Shown: positions 23,116 through 29,659 of the stretch, piece after piece
How positions within the stretch are numbered: position 1 is the first letter of the stretch
Layout of the letters: the number at the start of each line of letters is the position of its first letter
Assembly: GCA_013375475.1 (NCBI GenBank)
Contig: JABXKD010000007.1
Span: forward strand, 1-64,000
Direction of reading: 5' to 3'
Source of the DNA: Promethearchaeota archaeon
GTDB lineage: Archaea; Asgardarchaeota; Lokiarchaeia; Sigyniarchaeales; SOKP01
Length of the DNA stretch: 64,000 bases
Position numbers and translations under genes: made by a program
Notes under the pieces: model-generated
What the model saw: only the letters and a program-made list of their open reading frames with translations
The model's database searches: none
What the model was told of the DNA's origin: nothing

Positions 23116-24627
23116 TCAATCTATACTTACATCGTATTTTTGAATCGTTTCATTTCCAAGAATGTCATTTACTTTTACTGCTATTGTGTAATTTCCTTGT
23201 GTAGTATAGGGATAAGATATTGAGGATAATTTTAATTTACGGTTTTTTAGTGTTCTATACGATATCCAAGTCGTGGTAAAATAATCGTTTTGACAATAAA
23301 AATCTATAGCCCAACTATCAATCCAATCAGTAAAAGTTTCAATCTTAATTTTGAGTTTATCATTAATTAAATTTAAATCTAGGCCAAAATAATCTGCTAA
23401 TTCAATAGATATTTTTTTTCTCTCTTTAATCATTCTAATCTCAAATTTGCCCTTCTTAATTTCTGGCTGATCATTATTAATTCTCAAAATTCTAAATGGT
23501 TGGGGAAGTTCGTCGTATTTTTGATCCCAATTTATGAGGTCATTACTATTCCATACATCAAGAATTCTTTTGCGACTTATGTTTATCGCATGATTTCCTA
23601 TATCTGAACCAATCCATCTTCGTCCAAGTTTTTCTGCCACTACTAATGTTGTGCCAGTTCCACAAAAAAAATCTGCTACGATATCACCTTTATCTGAAGA
23701 AGCAAGAATTATCCTTTTCAACAATCTTTCAGGTTTTTGTGTGGAAAACGCTTGATATTCTGTAGTGTTTGCCCTGATATAAGGTAAATCCGTCCAAACA
23801 TCACGAGGAAAGATTCCCATGTTTGATATGTATACTTTCTGCGAAAGTTTCTTACCGTTATGACTTCCTCCGCGATGGTAGTAGGTCCCTTTATCGTCGT
23901 TTTTTAAAGCAAACTTAACTCGATCAGAATACTCCATATAAATTTTAGGATCGTCGTTAAATGTGTAATCTTTAGATTTCGTATAAAATAAAATCGAATC
24001 ATAAGAGCGAATAAAGAATCTTCTTGTTTTAGCCGATGCTGCAGGGTATGCCCAAATTATCTCATTTTTAAAATTTTCTTTTCCAAAAATTTCATCCATT
24101 ATTATTTTTATATAATGGGAAACATGCCAATCTAGATGTATATAAATGCTTCCATCTTCTGCGAGCAAATCTTTCATGATAATTAATCTCTCATATAAAA
24201 AATCAATATAAGCATCAATACCTCCATTCCAGGAATCTGAATAAGCCTTCGAGACTTCAAACGCGTTCTTTTCACCTATGAGCACTTTGGATTCGAAATC
24301 TCCTCCAGTCCCAAAAGGTGGATCGATATATATTAATTTGATTTTTTTCGAGTAAATGGGGAGCAAAGAATTCATAATATCCTTATTATCTCCTTGGATT
24401 AAGCAATTTATCATTCCTTTGGAAGATTCTTTACGCTTCTGATATTCTTCCATTCTTTTTTTAATTAGTTGAGTACGAGATCCAAAATTATCAATTATTG
24501 GGTATTTAAGTAATTCTTTTGTATTGAAAGGATGAACTTGTTGAGACTTATTCGTGTTTGACATTCTAAGTTTTTCTTTATCGTTCCAATTTAGATTCGG
24601 CATTATTAATCCACAATAAGATGGCAA
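23116..24627 (-). CDS. Site-specific amino-DNA methyltransferase (beta class, Mod-like)
   Basis: IYIDPPF, TQKPERLLKRII and DFFCGTGTT motifs. Confidence 0.9.
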   Translation of the reverse strand: MPSYCGLIMPNLNWNDKEKLRMSNTNKSQQVHPFNTKELLKYPIIDNFGSRTQLIKKRMEEYQKRKESSKGMINCLIQGDNKDIMNSLLPIYSKKIKLIYIDPPFGTGGDFESKVLIGEKNAFEVSKAYSDSWNGGIDAYIDFLYERLIIMKDLLAEDGSIYIHLDWHVSHYIKIIMDEIFGKENFKNEIIWAYPAASAKTRRFFIRSYDSILFYTKSKDYTFNDDPKIYMEYSDRVKFALKNDDKGTYYHRGGSHNGKKLSQKVYISNMGIFPRDVWTDLPYIRANTTEYQAFSTQKPERLLKRIILASSDKGDIVADFFCGTGTTLVVAEKLGRRWIGSDIGNHAINISRKRILDVWNSNDLINWDQKYDELPQPFRILRINNDQPEIKKGKFEIRMIKERKKISIELADYFGLDLNLINDKLKIKIETFTDWIDSWAIDFYCQNDYFTTTWISYRTLKNRKLKLSSISYPYTTQGNYTIAVKVNDILGNETIQKYDVSID

Positions 24628-26045: not shown

Positions 26046-26963
26046 ATGAAAGATGAATGGATTGAGTCTTATTTAAATGCTGGAAAAGCAGTTATCGCCG
26101 CTAAAAAACTTGCTAGAAAGCTCATTAAACCGGGAGCATCTTTTTTGGAAATTGCTAATAGATGCGAAGATGAAATAATAAATCAAGGATGCGAATTATC
26201 ATTTCCAATTAACATGTCGCTAAACGAGCAAGCTGCTCATTACAGCCCTGTTATTGACGATCCTACCCTGGTTCCTAATAAAGGACTGTTAAAAATTGAT
26301 TTAGGTTCTCACTATAACGGATATATTGCTGATTCAGCAATTACTTTTAATTTAGATGAAGATCCAAAGCTTCAAAATTACATTGACGCGGCACAAGATG
26401 CGTTGGATGCAGCGATCGAAATTTTTAAACCCGGCATTAAGTTGTATGAGTTAGGTGAAGTAATCGCAGATAAAATTCATAGCCGCGGCTTAAGACCAAT
26501 TATAAATCTTGGGGGCCATGAATTAAAACAATATAAACTGCATGCTGGTCCTTTTCTTCCTAATAAAAAAGATTTAAGTCATAATGAAGTTTTAAAACCT
26601 GGGGATGCTTACGCTTGTGAGCCATTTGCTACTTCAGGTGAAGGTTTAGTCACAAACGGTAAAAAATCTTATATTTACCGATTTGTTAAACGGGTAAAAA
26701 AGAATTTACCTTACGAAGAAATTAGCTATATGAAGAAAATAGAGGATTTAACCAAAAATTTACCTTTTTCGCCACGTTTATTAGAAAAACATAATATCAT
26801 CCCGAAAAACAAAATTCCTAGGATAATTGATGCTTTTAAGCGAAAAAAAATTCTTGATCATTATCCTATACTATTAGAGGTAACTGGAGCCCCAGTTGCT
26901 CAACAAGAACATACAATCATAATCGATATGGATGGAAATCCTATTGTCACAACCCGAGAATAA
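26046..26963 (+). CDS. map: Methionine aminopeptidase type II
   Basis: AAHYSP, KIDLG.H.NGYIADSA, NLGGH, CEPFAT, AQQEHT. Confidence 0.95.
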   Translation: MKDEWIESYLNAGKAVIAAKKLARKLIKPGASFLEIANRCEDEIINQGCELSFPINMSLNEQAAHYSPVIDDPTLVPNKGLLKIDLGSHYNGYIADSAITFNLDEDPKLQNYIDAAQDALDAAIEIFKPGIKLYELGEVIADKIHSRGLRPIINLGGHELKQYKLHAGPFLPNKKDLSHNEVLKPGDAYACEPFATSGEGLVTNGKKSYIYRFVKRVKKNLPYEEISYMKKIEDLTKNLPFSPRLLEKHNIIPKNKIPRIIDAFKRKKILDHYPILLEVTGAPVAQQEHTIIIDMDGNPIVTTRE

Positions 26964-27813
26964 TTTTAAGGAAAAAATTACGAGTGTCGTTCTATGTGCT
27001 GGTGAAGGAACACGCGCTAAGATTATATCTCAAAACTTACCAAAATCGCTTCTTAAAGTCAGTTCTTTAAATAATCAAACTATTCTTTCGTTAGTTCTTT
27101 CTATCTTAAAAAAGTTAAATCTAGATCCAATTATAGTTGTAACAGGGCATTTAGGTGAATATATTGAAGATTCTGTTTACTCTTTTCTAACTAAAAATCA
27201 GTATGGTGAAGATAGTATCATTATTCATAGTTCTGGAGATGACTACAAATTAGGCCCTCTCTTTTCTTTTTTAAGTATTACAAAAAATGAACAGATCTTT
27301 AAAGAAGATAAGTTATTTATGGTTCTTCCTGGAGATACTGTTTTTGATTTCAATCTAATTCAAGAAATTCTAAACTTATTATTAGAGAACTACTCGCTAG
27401 TTATCGATAATTCAATTATATTTTATAGGAAAATAAGAACCGATATATTAAAAAAAAAGTATAAAAAATACTACCCAAAATATGAAAAAAGTATCTCTTA
27501 TTTAAGAATGGAAGAAAAGGACTCAATAACGATTGTTAAAGAGATTTCTCAAGAAAAATTGAGTTCCTTATCTAATCAAGAAGTAATTAACCAGATTATT
27601 CCAATTTTTATATTTAACAACTCATATATTAAAGCAATTAAAGAGCTCGCTAGCTCAGTCAAATTTCGTACTATTCGCGAAGTAGTAAACTTAATGCTTG
27701 AAAGAAAAAAGCAGTTTTTTGCCATATCGGTTAGTCCAGAAAATAATTTCTATGACATCGATGCTCCTCTCGACTTAAAAATTCTGAATGAAAAAAAAAA
27801 AGGTGGACAATAG
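26932..27813 (+). CDS. Sugar-phosphate nucleotidyltransferase-family protein
   Basis: LCAGEGTR...LPKSLL, PGD and YDID motifs. Confidence 0.8.
   Translation: MEILLSQPENNFKEKITSVVLCAGEGTRAKIISQNLPKSLLKVSSLNNQTILSLVLSILKKLNLDPIIVVTGHLGEYIEDSVYSFLTKNQYGEDSIIIHSSGDDYKLGPLFSFLSITKNEQIFKEDKLFMVLPGDTVFDFNLIQEILNLLLENYSLVIDNSIIFYRKIRTDILKKKYKKYYPKYEKSISYLRMEEKDSITIVKEISQEKLSSLSNQEVINQIIPIFIFNNSYIKAIKELASSVKFRTIREVVNLMLERKKQFFAISVSPENNFYDIDAPLDLKILNEKKKGGQ
27791..27801 (-). terminator. U11 tract terminating the putative ncRNA
   Basis: Eleven A on the + strand, 2 nt from the end of the terminal helix. Confidence 0.6.
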
Positions 27814-28299
27814 TAGCTCCGATTATCTCAGAAAACATGTTTCAAAGGAAATCAATCTTTTACTCCAATGAATCGTATCTGGATCAAAGCTCTATTGAGG
27901 AAGTTAATAATTTTATTTTAAAGACATATAAAGTTTGAATGTCTCGTGTAGCAAGCGAAAAAACTGCTAAATTCAACAAGAGATCAAGCAAATATGTTTC
28001 AATTTAAACTTTATTTCGTGTCAATTTTAACCAAATTGCTTCTCTTTACAAAATTATTGCTCCCTCGTTGAAAAATAATAGAAATCTCCTAAAGCAATGA
28101 TAATCATGCTCGTAATTTAGGATTCAAAACTAAAGATATGTAATAATATAAAACCGTATGGAACTCAAGGCGTAAGTATTAACTCTGGTAAGAAAAAAAT
28201 GCTCCAGAACTTAAGAATCATTTATCAATTTTGCAACAACAAGCTCGTTGTTTAAATTGTAATTCTGTATCATAAACCAATGATTTAAACTATTGTCCA
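27802..28299 (-). ncRNA. Putative large (~500 nt) structured non-coding RNA of unrecognised family
   Basis: No ORF of 60 aa or more. Terminal helix 27804-27814/28289-28299. Nested stems 27891-96/28077-82, 27897-903/28060-66, 27906-14/28050-58 and 27919-24/28043-48, plus several hairpins. A-C mismatches on + read as G-U on -. TATA upstream and U-tract downstream. Confidence 0.75.
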
Positions 28300-28321
28300 A
28301 TAAGACATATGCATAATCATC

Positions 28322-28329
28322 TATTTAAA
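28322..28329 (-). promoter_or_regulatory. TATA box for the putative ncRNA
   Basis: TTTAAATA on the minus strand, 23-30 nt upstream of the 5' arm of the terminal helix. Confidence 0.5.
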
Positions 28330-28437
28330 TTTAATTATTAATTTATGAAATATATCCACTACATTATTCAGAGAAAGTTTAATAGATTCCAATATTATTA
28401 CTCAAAATGAAATTTAAATAAGAAATTTGAAAAGTAA

Positions 28438-28815
28438 ATGTCCATAAGAATAAAGATAGATCTCTTCGGAATAGGAACTCTTAAAGGTGAATTATTAAGA
28501 TTCTATGCACCACTATCCACAGATGCCATCGTCAATAAGCTACCTATTATTTTACGAGGTCGATTTAGTTTTGGTTCAAAAGCTTATTGGACACTCCCGG
28601 GAATTGAAATCTATAAAGGTCATAATCCAAAATCCGTTAAAAGCGTAGAGAAGGGAGAAATCATTTATAATCCTAAAACTGATGAATTACTCATAATTCT
28701 GGAAAACATTGAGATGCCTAATAAGGTAAATAAGATAGGGCGAGTTTTTGATAACCTAGAAATTCTTTTAAATGCTAAAAATGGTTTGAATACTAAAATA
28801 ATTAAAGCAAAATAG
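28438..28815 (+). CDS. Cyclophilin-like fold protein (TM1367/DUF369-like)
   Basis: AP.S.DAIVNKLP...VEKGEIIYNP...VNKIGRV pattern. Confidence 0.6.
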   Translation: MSIRIKIDLFGIGTLKGELLRFYAPLSTDAIVNKLPIILRGRFSFGSKAYWTLPGIEIYKGHNPKSVKSVEKGEIIYNPKTDELLIILENIEMPNKVNKIGRVFDNLEILLNAKNGLNTKIIKAK

Positions 28816-28843
28816 TAATTACAGAGATTATAAGGAGATTGTT

Positions 28844-29659
28844 ATGGCTATTTCGAATAAACTAACCATTGTCTTTACTATTTTCTACTTAGGAGTAATT
28901 ATATACTTAATTTTATTTCTAATAGTTCCTGCCTTTCAAGATGTCATAATTCAGTCAAGACAAGATATCACAGGGCTTACAGAAGGTTCCAGCTACTTTA
29001 TAGCACTTCTCATAGCCTTCTTTATTTGCCTTTTAGGAAATGCTAGTGTAGGTTTTCCAATACCCTATCCTTTTATAATTTTCTCATTTTCTAATTCAAT
29101 TTTTATCCGATATTCAAATTTAGGATTAAATCTTGGGGAAATTCTATTGAATGGCCCATTTTGGTTAGAAATATTAGTATTGGCCGCTGTTGGGGGACTT
29201 GGAAGTGCCTTGGGCGAACTTGTAGGATATTTAATTGGTATGGGAGCAAAAAAAGTAGCGAGTAAGTCTCAATCCAAATCGTTAAACAATGTGCAAGGAT
29301 TTGGAAAACTTGTTCTCGATCACCCAAAATCAATGCACATATACATTTTTATTGCAGCAGCTCTACCTATACCGGATGATCCATTATGGATAGCTTTAGG
29401 AATGTCAGATAAAAAGATTAATTTTCCTATCTGTATCCTTTGGGCGTGGTTAGGAAAAAATGTGACAACTATCTTCTATGTTATTTTTCCAATTTTGATT
29501 TCGCTGGGATTTGGAGCTACCGGGATTGAAGTTGATGACACCTCAAGTGTGATAACGGAAGCATTAATGCTAATAATTACGCTTGCAATTATGCAATTTA
29601 TTTTAAGTTTTAATTGGGAAAAATATCTAAATAACAGAAGAAAGAAGAAACTTTTGTAG
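28844..29659 (+). CDS. DedA/VTT-family membrane protein
   Basis: FPIPY, GGLGSALGELVGYLIG and ALPIPDD motifs. Confidence 0.8.
   Translation: MAISNKLTIVFTIFYLGVIIYLILFLIVPAFQDVIIQSRQDITGLTEGSSYFIALLIAFFICLLGNASVGFPIPYPFIIFSFSNSIFIRYSNLGLNLGEILLNGPFWLEILVLAAVGGLGSALGELVGYLIGMGAKKVASKSQSKSLNNVQGFGKLVLDHPKSMHIYIFIAAALPIPDDPLWIALGMSDKKINFPICILWAWLGKNVTTIFYVIFPILISLGFGATGIEVDDTSSVITEALMLIITLAIMQFILSFNWEKYLNNRRKKKLL

Follow-up and report, generated by a model that had tools for sequence, protein, structure and literature searches.

A stretch of one Asgard archaeal genome, lying between two protein-coding genes, is very probably the gene of a previously undescribed, stable and structured non-coding RNA that is specific to one family of the Promethearchaeia (Lokiarchaeia). 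The gene occupies positions 27802 to 28299 (about 498 nucleotides, nt), minus strand, of the first 64,000 nt of contig JABXKD010000007.1 in the Promethearchaeota archaeon assembly GCA_013375475.1, the stretch of DNA that was analysed as a whole and that we call the window. It is a single-copy, conserved RNA gene with its own TATA-box promoter, an oligo-U terminator, a covarying terminal helix (P1), a single-stranded CAUUGG motif and a 3′ hairpin (P2–P5) stacked on P1; fold statistics, homologues in 13 genera and contigs from RNA libraries add to its description. The RNA is a new family, and its function is something that we can only infer. Throughout, Ha and Hb denote two 5′ hairpins, codes beginning with f and g stand for GTDB families and genera (the window's genus is g1), and G000 is the window's own genome, an assembly of 3.92 Mb that is 100% complete by markers, with 6.41% contamination.

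What marks the locus as an RNA gene?

An earlier note, made from the letters of the window alone, had drawn attention to a gap of about 600 nt without open reading frames (ORFs), and this gap is real: 624 nt separate the end of one ORF at 27813 (plus strand) from the start of the next at 28438 (plus strand), the largest such interval between positions 24000 and 32000 of the window. Read along the minus strand, the interval holds an archaeal TATA box, TTTAAATA (28329–28322), then 22 nt, the 5′ arm of P1, UGGACAAUAGU (28299–28289), some 475 nt of RNA body, the 3′ arm, ACUAUUGUCCA (27814–27804), two C residues and a run of 11 U (27801–27791; A11 on the plus strand) that is the presumed terminator. 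The sequence directly preceding this run ends in UGUCCACC, and the 3′ end of the RNA lies somewhere within the run. Both flanking signals, the minus-strand box and the U11 tract, had been proposed in the earlier note and are found where it placed them; in addition, an A-rich stretch resembling a B-recognition element precedes the TATA box. These signals are also conserved: in 24 of 24 syntenic loci the TATA box stands at a fixed 22–23 nt (23 times as TTTAAATA, once as TTTATATA) and a T-run follows the 3′ arm, while all 18 representatives of the 13 genera have the box as TTTA[AT]ATA and likewise the T-run, which was present in every locus read. A scan of the region for promoters and terminators of the bacterial type was uninformative, the host being an archaeon.

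The strand of the RNA can be settled with some assurance. The minus strand folds at −109.4 kcal/mol (z −3.28; equalled by none of 100 shuffles), the plus strand at −90.4 kcal/mol (z −1.87; equalled by 4 of 100), and helix P2 contains two nearly invariant U–G pairs that on the plus strand would be C–A oppositions. These fold energies and U–G pairs, together with the orientation of promoter and terminator, make the minus strand the RNA strand, and they bear out the earlier argument that A–C oppositions in the plus-strand stems turn into G–U pairs on the minus strand. The longest homologue, of 624 nt (L121:769–1392, genus g14), carries A6–A8 runs in place of the U runs seen in other genera; since it is typical in its ends, promoter and CAUUGG motif, the strand assignment is not in doubt.

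There are also traces of the RNA in environmental libraries. Four sediment metatranscriptomes, each from a different study (X1, X2, X7 and X8), have contigs that align on 27817–28298, the longest piece covering 312 nt of the stretch and several sequence variants being represented. Twenty RNA-labelled runs of 12 studies share sampled words with this stretch, and evidence was taken from the aligned four only; contig depth, at 3–172, cannot rank genes. No contig aligned on 27300–27785 or 28326–28900, which is uninformative as to transcript ends or expression of the neighbours. Of the minus-strand transcript that had been expected, transcription of the gene is thus supported by contigs of four studies, but its strand is not readable from them.

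How well is the structure conserved?

The perfect 11-bp closing helix that had been drawn between 27804–27814 and 28289–28299 withstands scrutiny, being part of the minimum-energy fold, and measures 11–13 bp across homologues. Its 5′ arm is invariant within the genus and covaries between genera. Over the 18 representatives, in an alignment made with MAFFT and not fitted to the structure, 89.3% of cells in P1 are paired, double changes occur at 8 of 13 pairs as against 3.3 in shuffles (0 of 500 reached this), and the covariation score is 0.221 compared with 0.075 in shuffled and at most 0.051 in slid controls. The changes include C–G to U·G to U–A, G–C to A–U, C–G to G–C and A–U to U–A. Most genera have the arms 5′ GGACAAUAG and 3′ CUAUUGUCC; g12 and g16 join GGAUAAUAG to CUAUUGUCC with a U·G pair, and g14 and g23 join GGAUAAUAG to CUAUUAUCC. 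The remaining combinations are AGACAAUAG with CUAUUGUCU in g18, GAACAAUAG with CUAUUGUUC in g19, GGAGAAUAG with CUAUUCUCC in g22 and GGACAUUAG with CUAAUGUCC in g21, and the inner extensions of the helix vary between genera as well (U–A, GU/AC or AAG/CUU). Shortly after the 5′ arm comes the single-stranded motif (G/U)CAUUGG (28277–28283, minus strand), of which CAUUG does not vary in any of the 18 representatives and the columns C18, A19, T20, G22 and G23 are invariant in the genus alignment.

The 3′ domain (27815–27891, minus strand) is a hairpin whose first helix, P2 (AGCUUUGAU / AUCGGAGCU, 9 bp), stacks directly on P1 and opens into the long, irregular P3–P5. In the unfitted alignment 89.1% of its cells are paired versus 36–57% in slid controls, and none of 500 shuffles did as well; taking seven helices together, the unfitted alignment of 32 sequences gives 89.7% versus 31–53%. 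Twenty sequences of other genera, which had no part in building the model, are paired at 77.3% versus 35–49% in an alignment that was fitted to the model; they retain P2, P4 and P5, with P3 shifted in register. In g13, g15, g17 and others, a different hairpin occupies the position of the 3′ domain.

Towards the 5′ end, hairpin Ha (AACAAC / GUUGUU; 28235–28252, minus strand) is predicted at matching alignment positions in four clades (A, B, C and F) and in part in a fifth (G), and 81.7% of its cells are paired. Hairpin Hb, whose loop is rich in U (UCUGG / CCAGA; 28179–28214, minus strand), is predicted in clades A, B, C and F, with 77.8% paired and double changes in 3 of its 5 pairs. The further hairpins listed in the earlier note therefore fared unevenly: these two were predicted separately, and at matching columns, in four or more clades, but those at 27818–27832 and 27864–27883 are the two sides of the one long 3′ hairpin, and that at 28087–28122 is confined to the window's own clade. 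Much the same holds for the nested central domain, all of whose pairs are standard on the minus strand and which is predicted in the window's own clade, but which reaches only 64.7% of cells across the genus (32 sequences) versus 39–44% in slid controls. The central region as a whole (27992–28178, minus strand) is variable, with clade-specific helices, insertions and deletions.

Beside it lie the core blocks UCUUGU (27976–27981) and UACACGAGACA..AAAC (27933–27953), within 27933–27981 on the minus strand, which flank a small hairpin with a U6 loop (27958–27963) and are kept in 52 sequences of four genera; the pairing UCUUGU/ACGAGA is possible in 89.1% of cells, almost without variation. The full set of blocks kept over four genera comprises the 5′ arm, (G)CAUUGG, UCUUGU, UAC.CGAGACA..AAAC, GCUUUGAU, UUCAUUGGA, UCC.UUGAAACA and AUCGGAGC..CUAUUGUCC. 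When RNAalifold is given the MAFFT alignment over the whole length, the consensus consists of P1 and part of P2 only. Nevertheless, the conservation and covariation that the earlier note had called for in relatives were found, in P1, the 3′ domain and other helices.

The 3′ arm of P1 has a second potential partner. An internal CAAUAG (27892–27897, minus strand), directly 5′ of P2, copies the inner half of the 5′ arm and recurs in 41 of 52 sequences. In folds of the final 150 nt by themselves, 13 of 18 representatives pair 5 nt or more of the 3′ arm with an internal copy of this kind. Lineage-specific changes are mirrored in the copy: in g21 it is GGACAUUA, which matches that genus's own 5′ end over 9 bp, and in locus L109 of g12 it is AUAAUAGG, while the cases that amount to a 5-mer (g14 and g23) are possibly due to chance. 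The 3′ arm may thus have a choice of partners, as in a switch, a folding intermediate or an intermolecular swap of arms.

Where is the RNA found?

Within the 3.92-Mb assembly the region is single-copy, both by BLAST and by R1, a covariance model of the 3′ domain. BLAST matches elsewhere are confined to the window's genus, where 11 genomes have the RNA in full length at 70–92% identity (one of them twice) and others in part; all 24 g1 loci that were fetched have the same neighbours around a gap of 456–666 nt. An exact-pattern scan for the 3′ end motif through the genomes of 185,579 species returned 33 matches, of which 30 could be extracted with 5′ arm, TATA box and T-run. Two run into the edge of a contig, one belongs to a locus trimmed to 419 bases, short of the 5′ arm, and one, from a Salinisphaera record, lacks that arm. 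Those records that carry titles are metagenome-assembled genomes of Promethearchaeota or Promethearchaeia, some under other labels. From this came 32 distinct RNAs of 347–517 nt.

With R1 the RNA was matched in 37 of 41 genomes of g1, 47 of 53 of g12, 5 of 8 of g16 and the single genome of g23, once per genome except for two matches in G014, and all 20 loci fetched from these genera keep synteny, promoter and terminator. Synteny and end motifs add g13, g14, g15, g17, g18, g19, g20, g21 and g22. The gene is therefore present in all 13 genera of family f1 (Promethearchaeia/Lokiarchaeia) that the searches drew, at lengths of 360–624 nt and in more than 60 natural variants. We propose to define the family by the TATA box, a 5′ arm of the GGAYAAUAG type, CAUUGG within 2–16 nt, a body of 0.3–0.6 kb, a complementary 3′ arm, the T-run and a convergent nucleotidyltransferase gene, and this combination is found in 18 of 18 representatives of the 13 genera.

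Outside f1 the picture is quite different. R1 finds nothing in 19 genomes of other families of the order (0 of 14 in f2, 0 of 1 in f3, 0 of 4 in f4); beside the cyclophilin-like gene of f2 and f4 its scores are at chance level only and there is no ORF-free gap, and the best nucleotidyltransferase-like gene of f2, the counterpart of the one that lies next to the RNA in f1, has no RNA features alongside. The 5′ pattern matches 50 of 265 genomes of the phylum outside f1, and among the nine such matches examined none has a 3′ arm or promoter. In sum, the RNA is found throughout f1 and in none of the other Asgard genomes searched, which does not prove its absence there, and the 'core Asgard locus' of the earlier note was too wide a description for an RNA found in one family only.

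A few records call for comment in their own right. G014 carries the locus twice (L009 and L018; C57:2866–3405 and C117:492–1023), the RNAs being 92% and 88% identical to that of the window and the neighbour proteins 92% and 67%; given a contamination value of 9, the bin seems to mix two strains or species, and a gene duplication is the less likely reading. Five records (L034, L043, L044, L046 and L051) are titled Hermodarchaeota, Odinarchaeota, Hodarchaeota and Nanopelagicaceae bacterium; their RNAs are identical to those of g1 genomes, so the record labels are inconsistent. Finally, GGATAATAGTACATTGG occurs with conserved flanks in three f16 genomes (L126–L128), with neither promoter nor 3′ arm, and is therefore different from the RNA and probably part of a conserved gene.

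Is it a known RNA in disguise?

The answer appears to be no. Rfam 15 gives no match over the whole window at gathering scores, three chance-level matches only on 27600–28500 (E 2.2–8), and none at E≤1 in 10 diverse homologous loci of six genera; the scan covers RNase MRP, OLE, GOLLD, ROOL, 6S, Y RNA, transfer-messenger RNA (tmRNA), group I and II introns, and C/D and H/ACA RNAs. The earlier note's suggestion that the RNA might belong to a new class thus stands for window, region and homologues alike. The archaeal RNase P RNA model (RF00373) has no match at E≤10, and the archaeal signal recognition particle (SRP) RNA model (RF01857) has none, on 27600–28500. A canonical RNase P RNA gene does exist elsewhere in the genome (C22:59819–60142, 137.5 bits), a point that the earlier note wanted checked, and so does an SRP RNA candidate (C166:40735–40970, 62.9 bits), although the latter scores below the gathering score of 96.5. 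This candidate covers model positions 67–307 only, and the SRP RNA of the lineage seems to be divergent in its 5′ part.

More specialised classes were looked for too. Box C/D and U3-like RNAs have a C box (RUGAUGA) and a D box (CUGA) beside a terminal stem, and the UGAUAC and CUGA of the window are not conserved across the 32-sequence alignment. As potential guides, five conserved segments were compared with both small-subunit (SSU) rRNA genes and their 400-nt flanks (23S rRNA was not included), and the duplex energies are within the range of shuffles. The two SSU rRNA genes of the assembly (C222:102936–104338 and C263:2265–3749; 1238 and 1043 bits) are an observation of their own, and one of them may come from another organism, given the contamination of 6.41%. 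ARAGORN sees no tRNA-like or tmRNA domain in 27000–29000. No match to Ro60/TROVE (PF05731) is present in G000, and a Ro ribonucleoprotein (RNP) of the Y RNA type is ruled out by this and by the lack of an Rfam Y RNA match. Two motif resemblances, one between GAUACACGAGACA and the ACAGAGA box of U6 and one between the U tracts and Sm sites, were considered and dropped.

Nor does the interval appear to code for protein or to be mobile. No ORF is common to the 24 syntenic gaps, and the longest ORFs of the RNA strand in the 18 representatives (20–77 codons) differ in place and frame, with a single 11-residue match, within g1. A mobile element, such as the miniature inverted-repeat transposable element (MITE) that the earlier note had named as a way to be wrong, is ruled out: there is one copy in the genome, other BLAST matches are of 15–29 nt at E>0.1, and the synteny is fixed in 13 genera. 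Overall, the evidence supports a multi-domain RNA that is transcribed independently and falls outside the known families.

Which genes surround it?

The convergent neighbour (26932–27813, plus strand) encodes a protein similar to sugar-1-phosphate nucleotidylyltransferases (Pfam NTP_transf_3), and its 3′ end overlaps that of the RNA. Its AlphaFold2 model (predicted local distance difference test, pLDDT, 86.7) is matched by Foldseek to UDP-glucose pyrophosphorylases (UGPases) at E ~1e-12 and a template modelling (TM) score of 0.61–0.65 over about 290 columns, and weak NCBIfam and PDB sequence matches are of the same kind. The gene adjoins the RNA in every locus checked, including that of g17. 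The idea that the neighbour might be an RNA-acting enzyme is ruled out, as the UGPase match extends over the whole length and leaves no extra or RNA-binding domain; its link with the RNA is therefore positional or regulatory, and not enzymatic as far as is visible. The P1 3′ arm extends over the final codons of this gene, stop codon included, and the lysines at its end are encoded by the complement of the U11 run: within 27791–27813, terminator and 3′ arm are complementary to the last seven codons (K K K G G Q stop), and across the genus none of these bases varies, synonymous positions included. Because of this invariance, the RNA gene appears to dictate the C-terminal tail of the nucleotidyltransferase.

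On the other side, the divergent gene (28438–28815, plus strand) encodes a small cyclophilin-like protein with a weak Pfam match, below cut-off. It adjoins the RNA in 24 of 24 and in 20 of 20 loci, and is 9.4 kb off in one g17 genome (G089), where about 1.2 kb beside it (L120:1891–3095) contain one 71-codon ORF only. A gene for a VTT-domain membrane protein (28844–29656) lies two genes away from the RNA.

What might the RNA do?

Our preferred, and tentative, idea is that the RNA acts in trans as a ribonucleoprotein scaffold, which on the sequence features described we hold to be somewhat short of evenly balanced. The nearly invariant sequence of P1 and the CAUUGG motif would form a module for protein recognition and end protection, the U-rich loops and the U tail would be candidate platforms for Sm-like proteins, and the variable centre would serve as a spacer or scaffold body. 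Three genes with an LSM domain are present in G000, as in most archaea. More tentatively still, the internal copy of the 5′ arm might compete for the 3′ arm, so that the RNA could exist in two states, or arms could be exchanged between molecules.

A bolder proposal, and one that we regard as doubtful, is that this is the first large, ornate class of non-coding RNA specific to Asgard archaea, abundant and particle-forming, in which P1 and CAUUGG would recruit dedicated proteins or promote self-assembly and the ends would be two-state. The internal copy, tracking the substitutions of each lineage, would in that case free the 5′ end or let molecules exchange arms.

Several observations weigh against this picture of a structured RNA acting in trans, and are best considered together. 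Helix P3 takes another register in g12 (61% and 40% paired), the middle third of the RNA is without cross-clade structure, and much of the conserved sequence is so nearly unvarying that it holds no information on pairing either way. The shuffle controls overstate significance, since related sequences are not independent, and among more distant relatives the RNA, at about 62% mean identity, is on a par with the adjacent spacer (about 61%), with constraint confined to the blocks. The RNA-library contigs show neither strand, ends nor level. The U6–7 loops, kept in four genera, are absent from g14, which has A runs instead, and the RNP, Sm-like and switch ideas alike draw on sequence features only. 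In addition, strict adjacency to one gene could indicate a local role in cis.

This last point keeps alive the rival that we take most seriously, though it is an unlikely one, namely that the RNA is a cis-antisense regulator of the convergent nucleotidyltransferase gene, whose 3′ overlap would, upon read-through, give double-stranded RNA that alters the stability or termination of the messenger. The convergent gene is indeed adjacent or overlapping in 24 of 24 and 20 of 20 loci, in L117, L119 and L121 and in 4 of 4 further loci, g17 being among the genera covered; a search downstream of it was what uncovered the RNA in g18, g19, g21 and g22 (4 of 4 f1 genera), and the end of its reading frame, stop codon included, falls within P1 and the terminator. 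An RNA of 360–624 nt with a covarying P1, conserved blocks and a strong promoter of its own nevertheless exceeds what an overlap of 12–25 nt would need, its most conserved parts (5′ arm and CAUUGG) are at the end distant from the overlap, and the neighbour protein has an ordinary UGPase-type fold with no RNA-binding domain. We consider it less probable again, and indeed quite improbable, that the transcript is the precursor of several small RNAs, cut or terminated at internal U tracts, with the 500-nt form as an intermediate. Two conserved internal U6–7 tracts could be archaeal terminators, the RNA-library contigs are short (40–416 nt), and there is a weak match, at chance level (E=8), to a C/D-box small nucleolar RNA; yet the pairing and covariation of the 5′ and 3′ ends imply one molecule or a stable complex of pieces, a 312-nt contig (27865–28177) crosses the inner U tract at 27958–27963, and the C/D boxes are not conserved in the alignment, nor is there a match to any Rfam small-RNA family.

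Two remaining explanations are, in our opinion, barely credible. That the RNA is an extremely diverged universal RNA (RNase P/MRP, SRP or another Rfam family) is suggested by its size and by a terminal helix made from both ends, which is also the arrangement in RNase P and archaeal SRP RNA; this was the main alternative of the earlier note, in the form of a very divergent RNase P/MRP RNA, and it fails on the absence of Rfam matches in the region (E≤10), the window (gathering scores) and 10 homologous loci (E≤1), and on the RNase P RNA and SRP candidate elsewhere in the genome. That there is no RNA gene at all, and that we are looking at a DNA-level element (a remnant mobile element or protein-binding sites) or at the messenger of a small protein, might be read from the perfect 11-bp inverted repeat at the ends and the RNA-strand ORFs of 20–77 codons. 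Against it stand the single copy with none dispersed, the U·G intermediates and G–U pairs tolerated on one strand only, the conserved promoter and terminator, the RNA-library contigs, and ORFs that differ in place and frame and have no similarity between genera.

How does it compare with other large RNAs, and why does it matter?

Archaeal RNase P RNA is in the same range of size as the RNA described here, likewise closes on itself with a terminal helix built from both ends, and comes from a single-copy, housekeeping-type gene with its own promoter, but its family model does not match, the true gene is elsewhere, and in a comparison by eye we saw none of the conserved P4-type core motifs. Y RNAs and other end-paired small RNAs are alike in an end stem conserved in both sequence and pairing, an oligo-U tail and a variable remainder; unlike Y RNAs, the RNA described here is 4–5 times longer and is accompanied by neither a Ro60/TROVE gene nor an Rfam Y RNA match. 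Large structured non-coding RNAs are few, and to our knowledge each of the well-studied families (rRNAs, RNase P, group I and II introns, SRP RNA, OLE, GOLLD/ROOL) has given rise to new biochemistry.

OLE ('ornate, large, extremophilic') is a large structured non-coding RNA that one account reports to be very highly expressed (PMC3413148). It measures roughly 0.6 kb and, like the Asgard RNA, is of unclear biochemical function, restricted in lineage, single-copy and fixed in its gene neighbourhood; it differs in being bacterial, and the Asgard RNA has no Rfam match to it and a much more variable length (360–624 nt). The gene of a membrane partner is found near OLE, and here the VTT-domain gene stands two genes off. 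GOLLD and ROOL, according to a recent preprint, form RNA-only multimers (bioRxiv 10.1101/2024.12.08.627333). They too are large, ornate RNAs that came out of comparative genomics and whose function is unclear, and the competing partners of the 3′ arm would permit a swap of arms between molecules in our RNA; in contrast, they are bacterial or phage-associated, and Rfam finds neither of them here.

In the literature searched, no large, lineage-specific class of Asgard non-coding RNA was found described. Now that the gene's ends, promoter and covarying frame are defined and over 60 natural variants are at hand, there is enough for synthesis, probing, imaging and a search for partners. Asgard archaea are the closest known relatives of eukaryotes, and their genomes hold conserved RNA genes that have been overlooked by protein-centred annotation.

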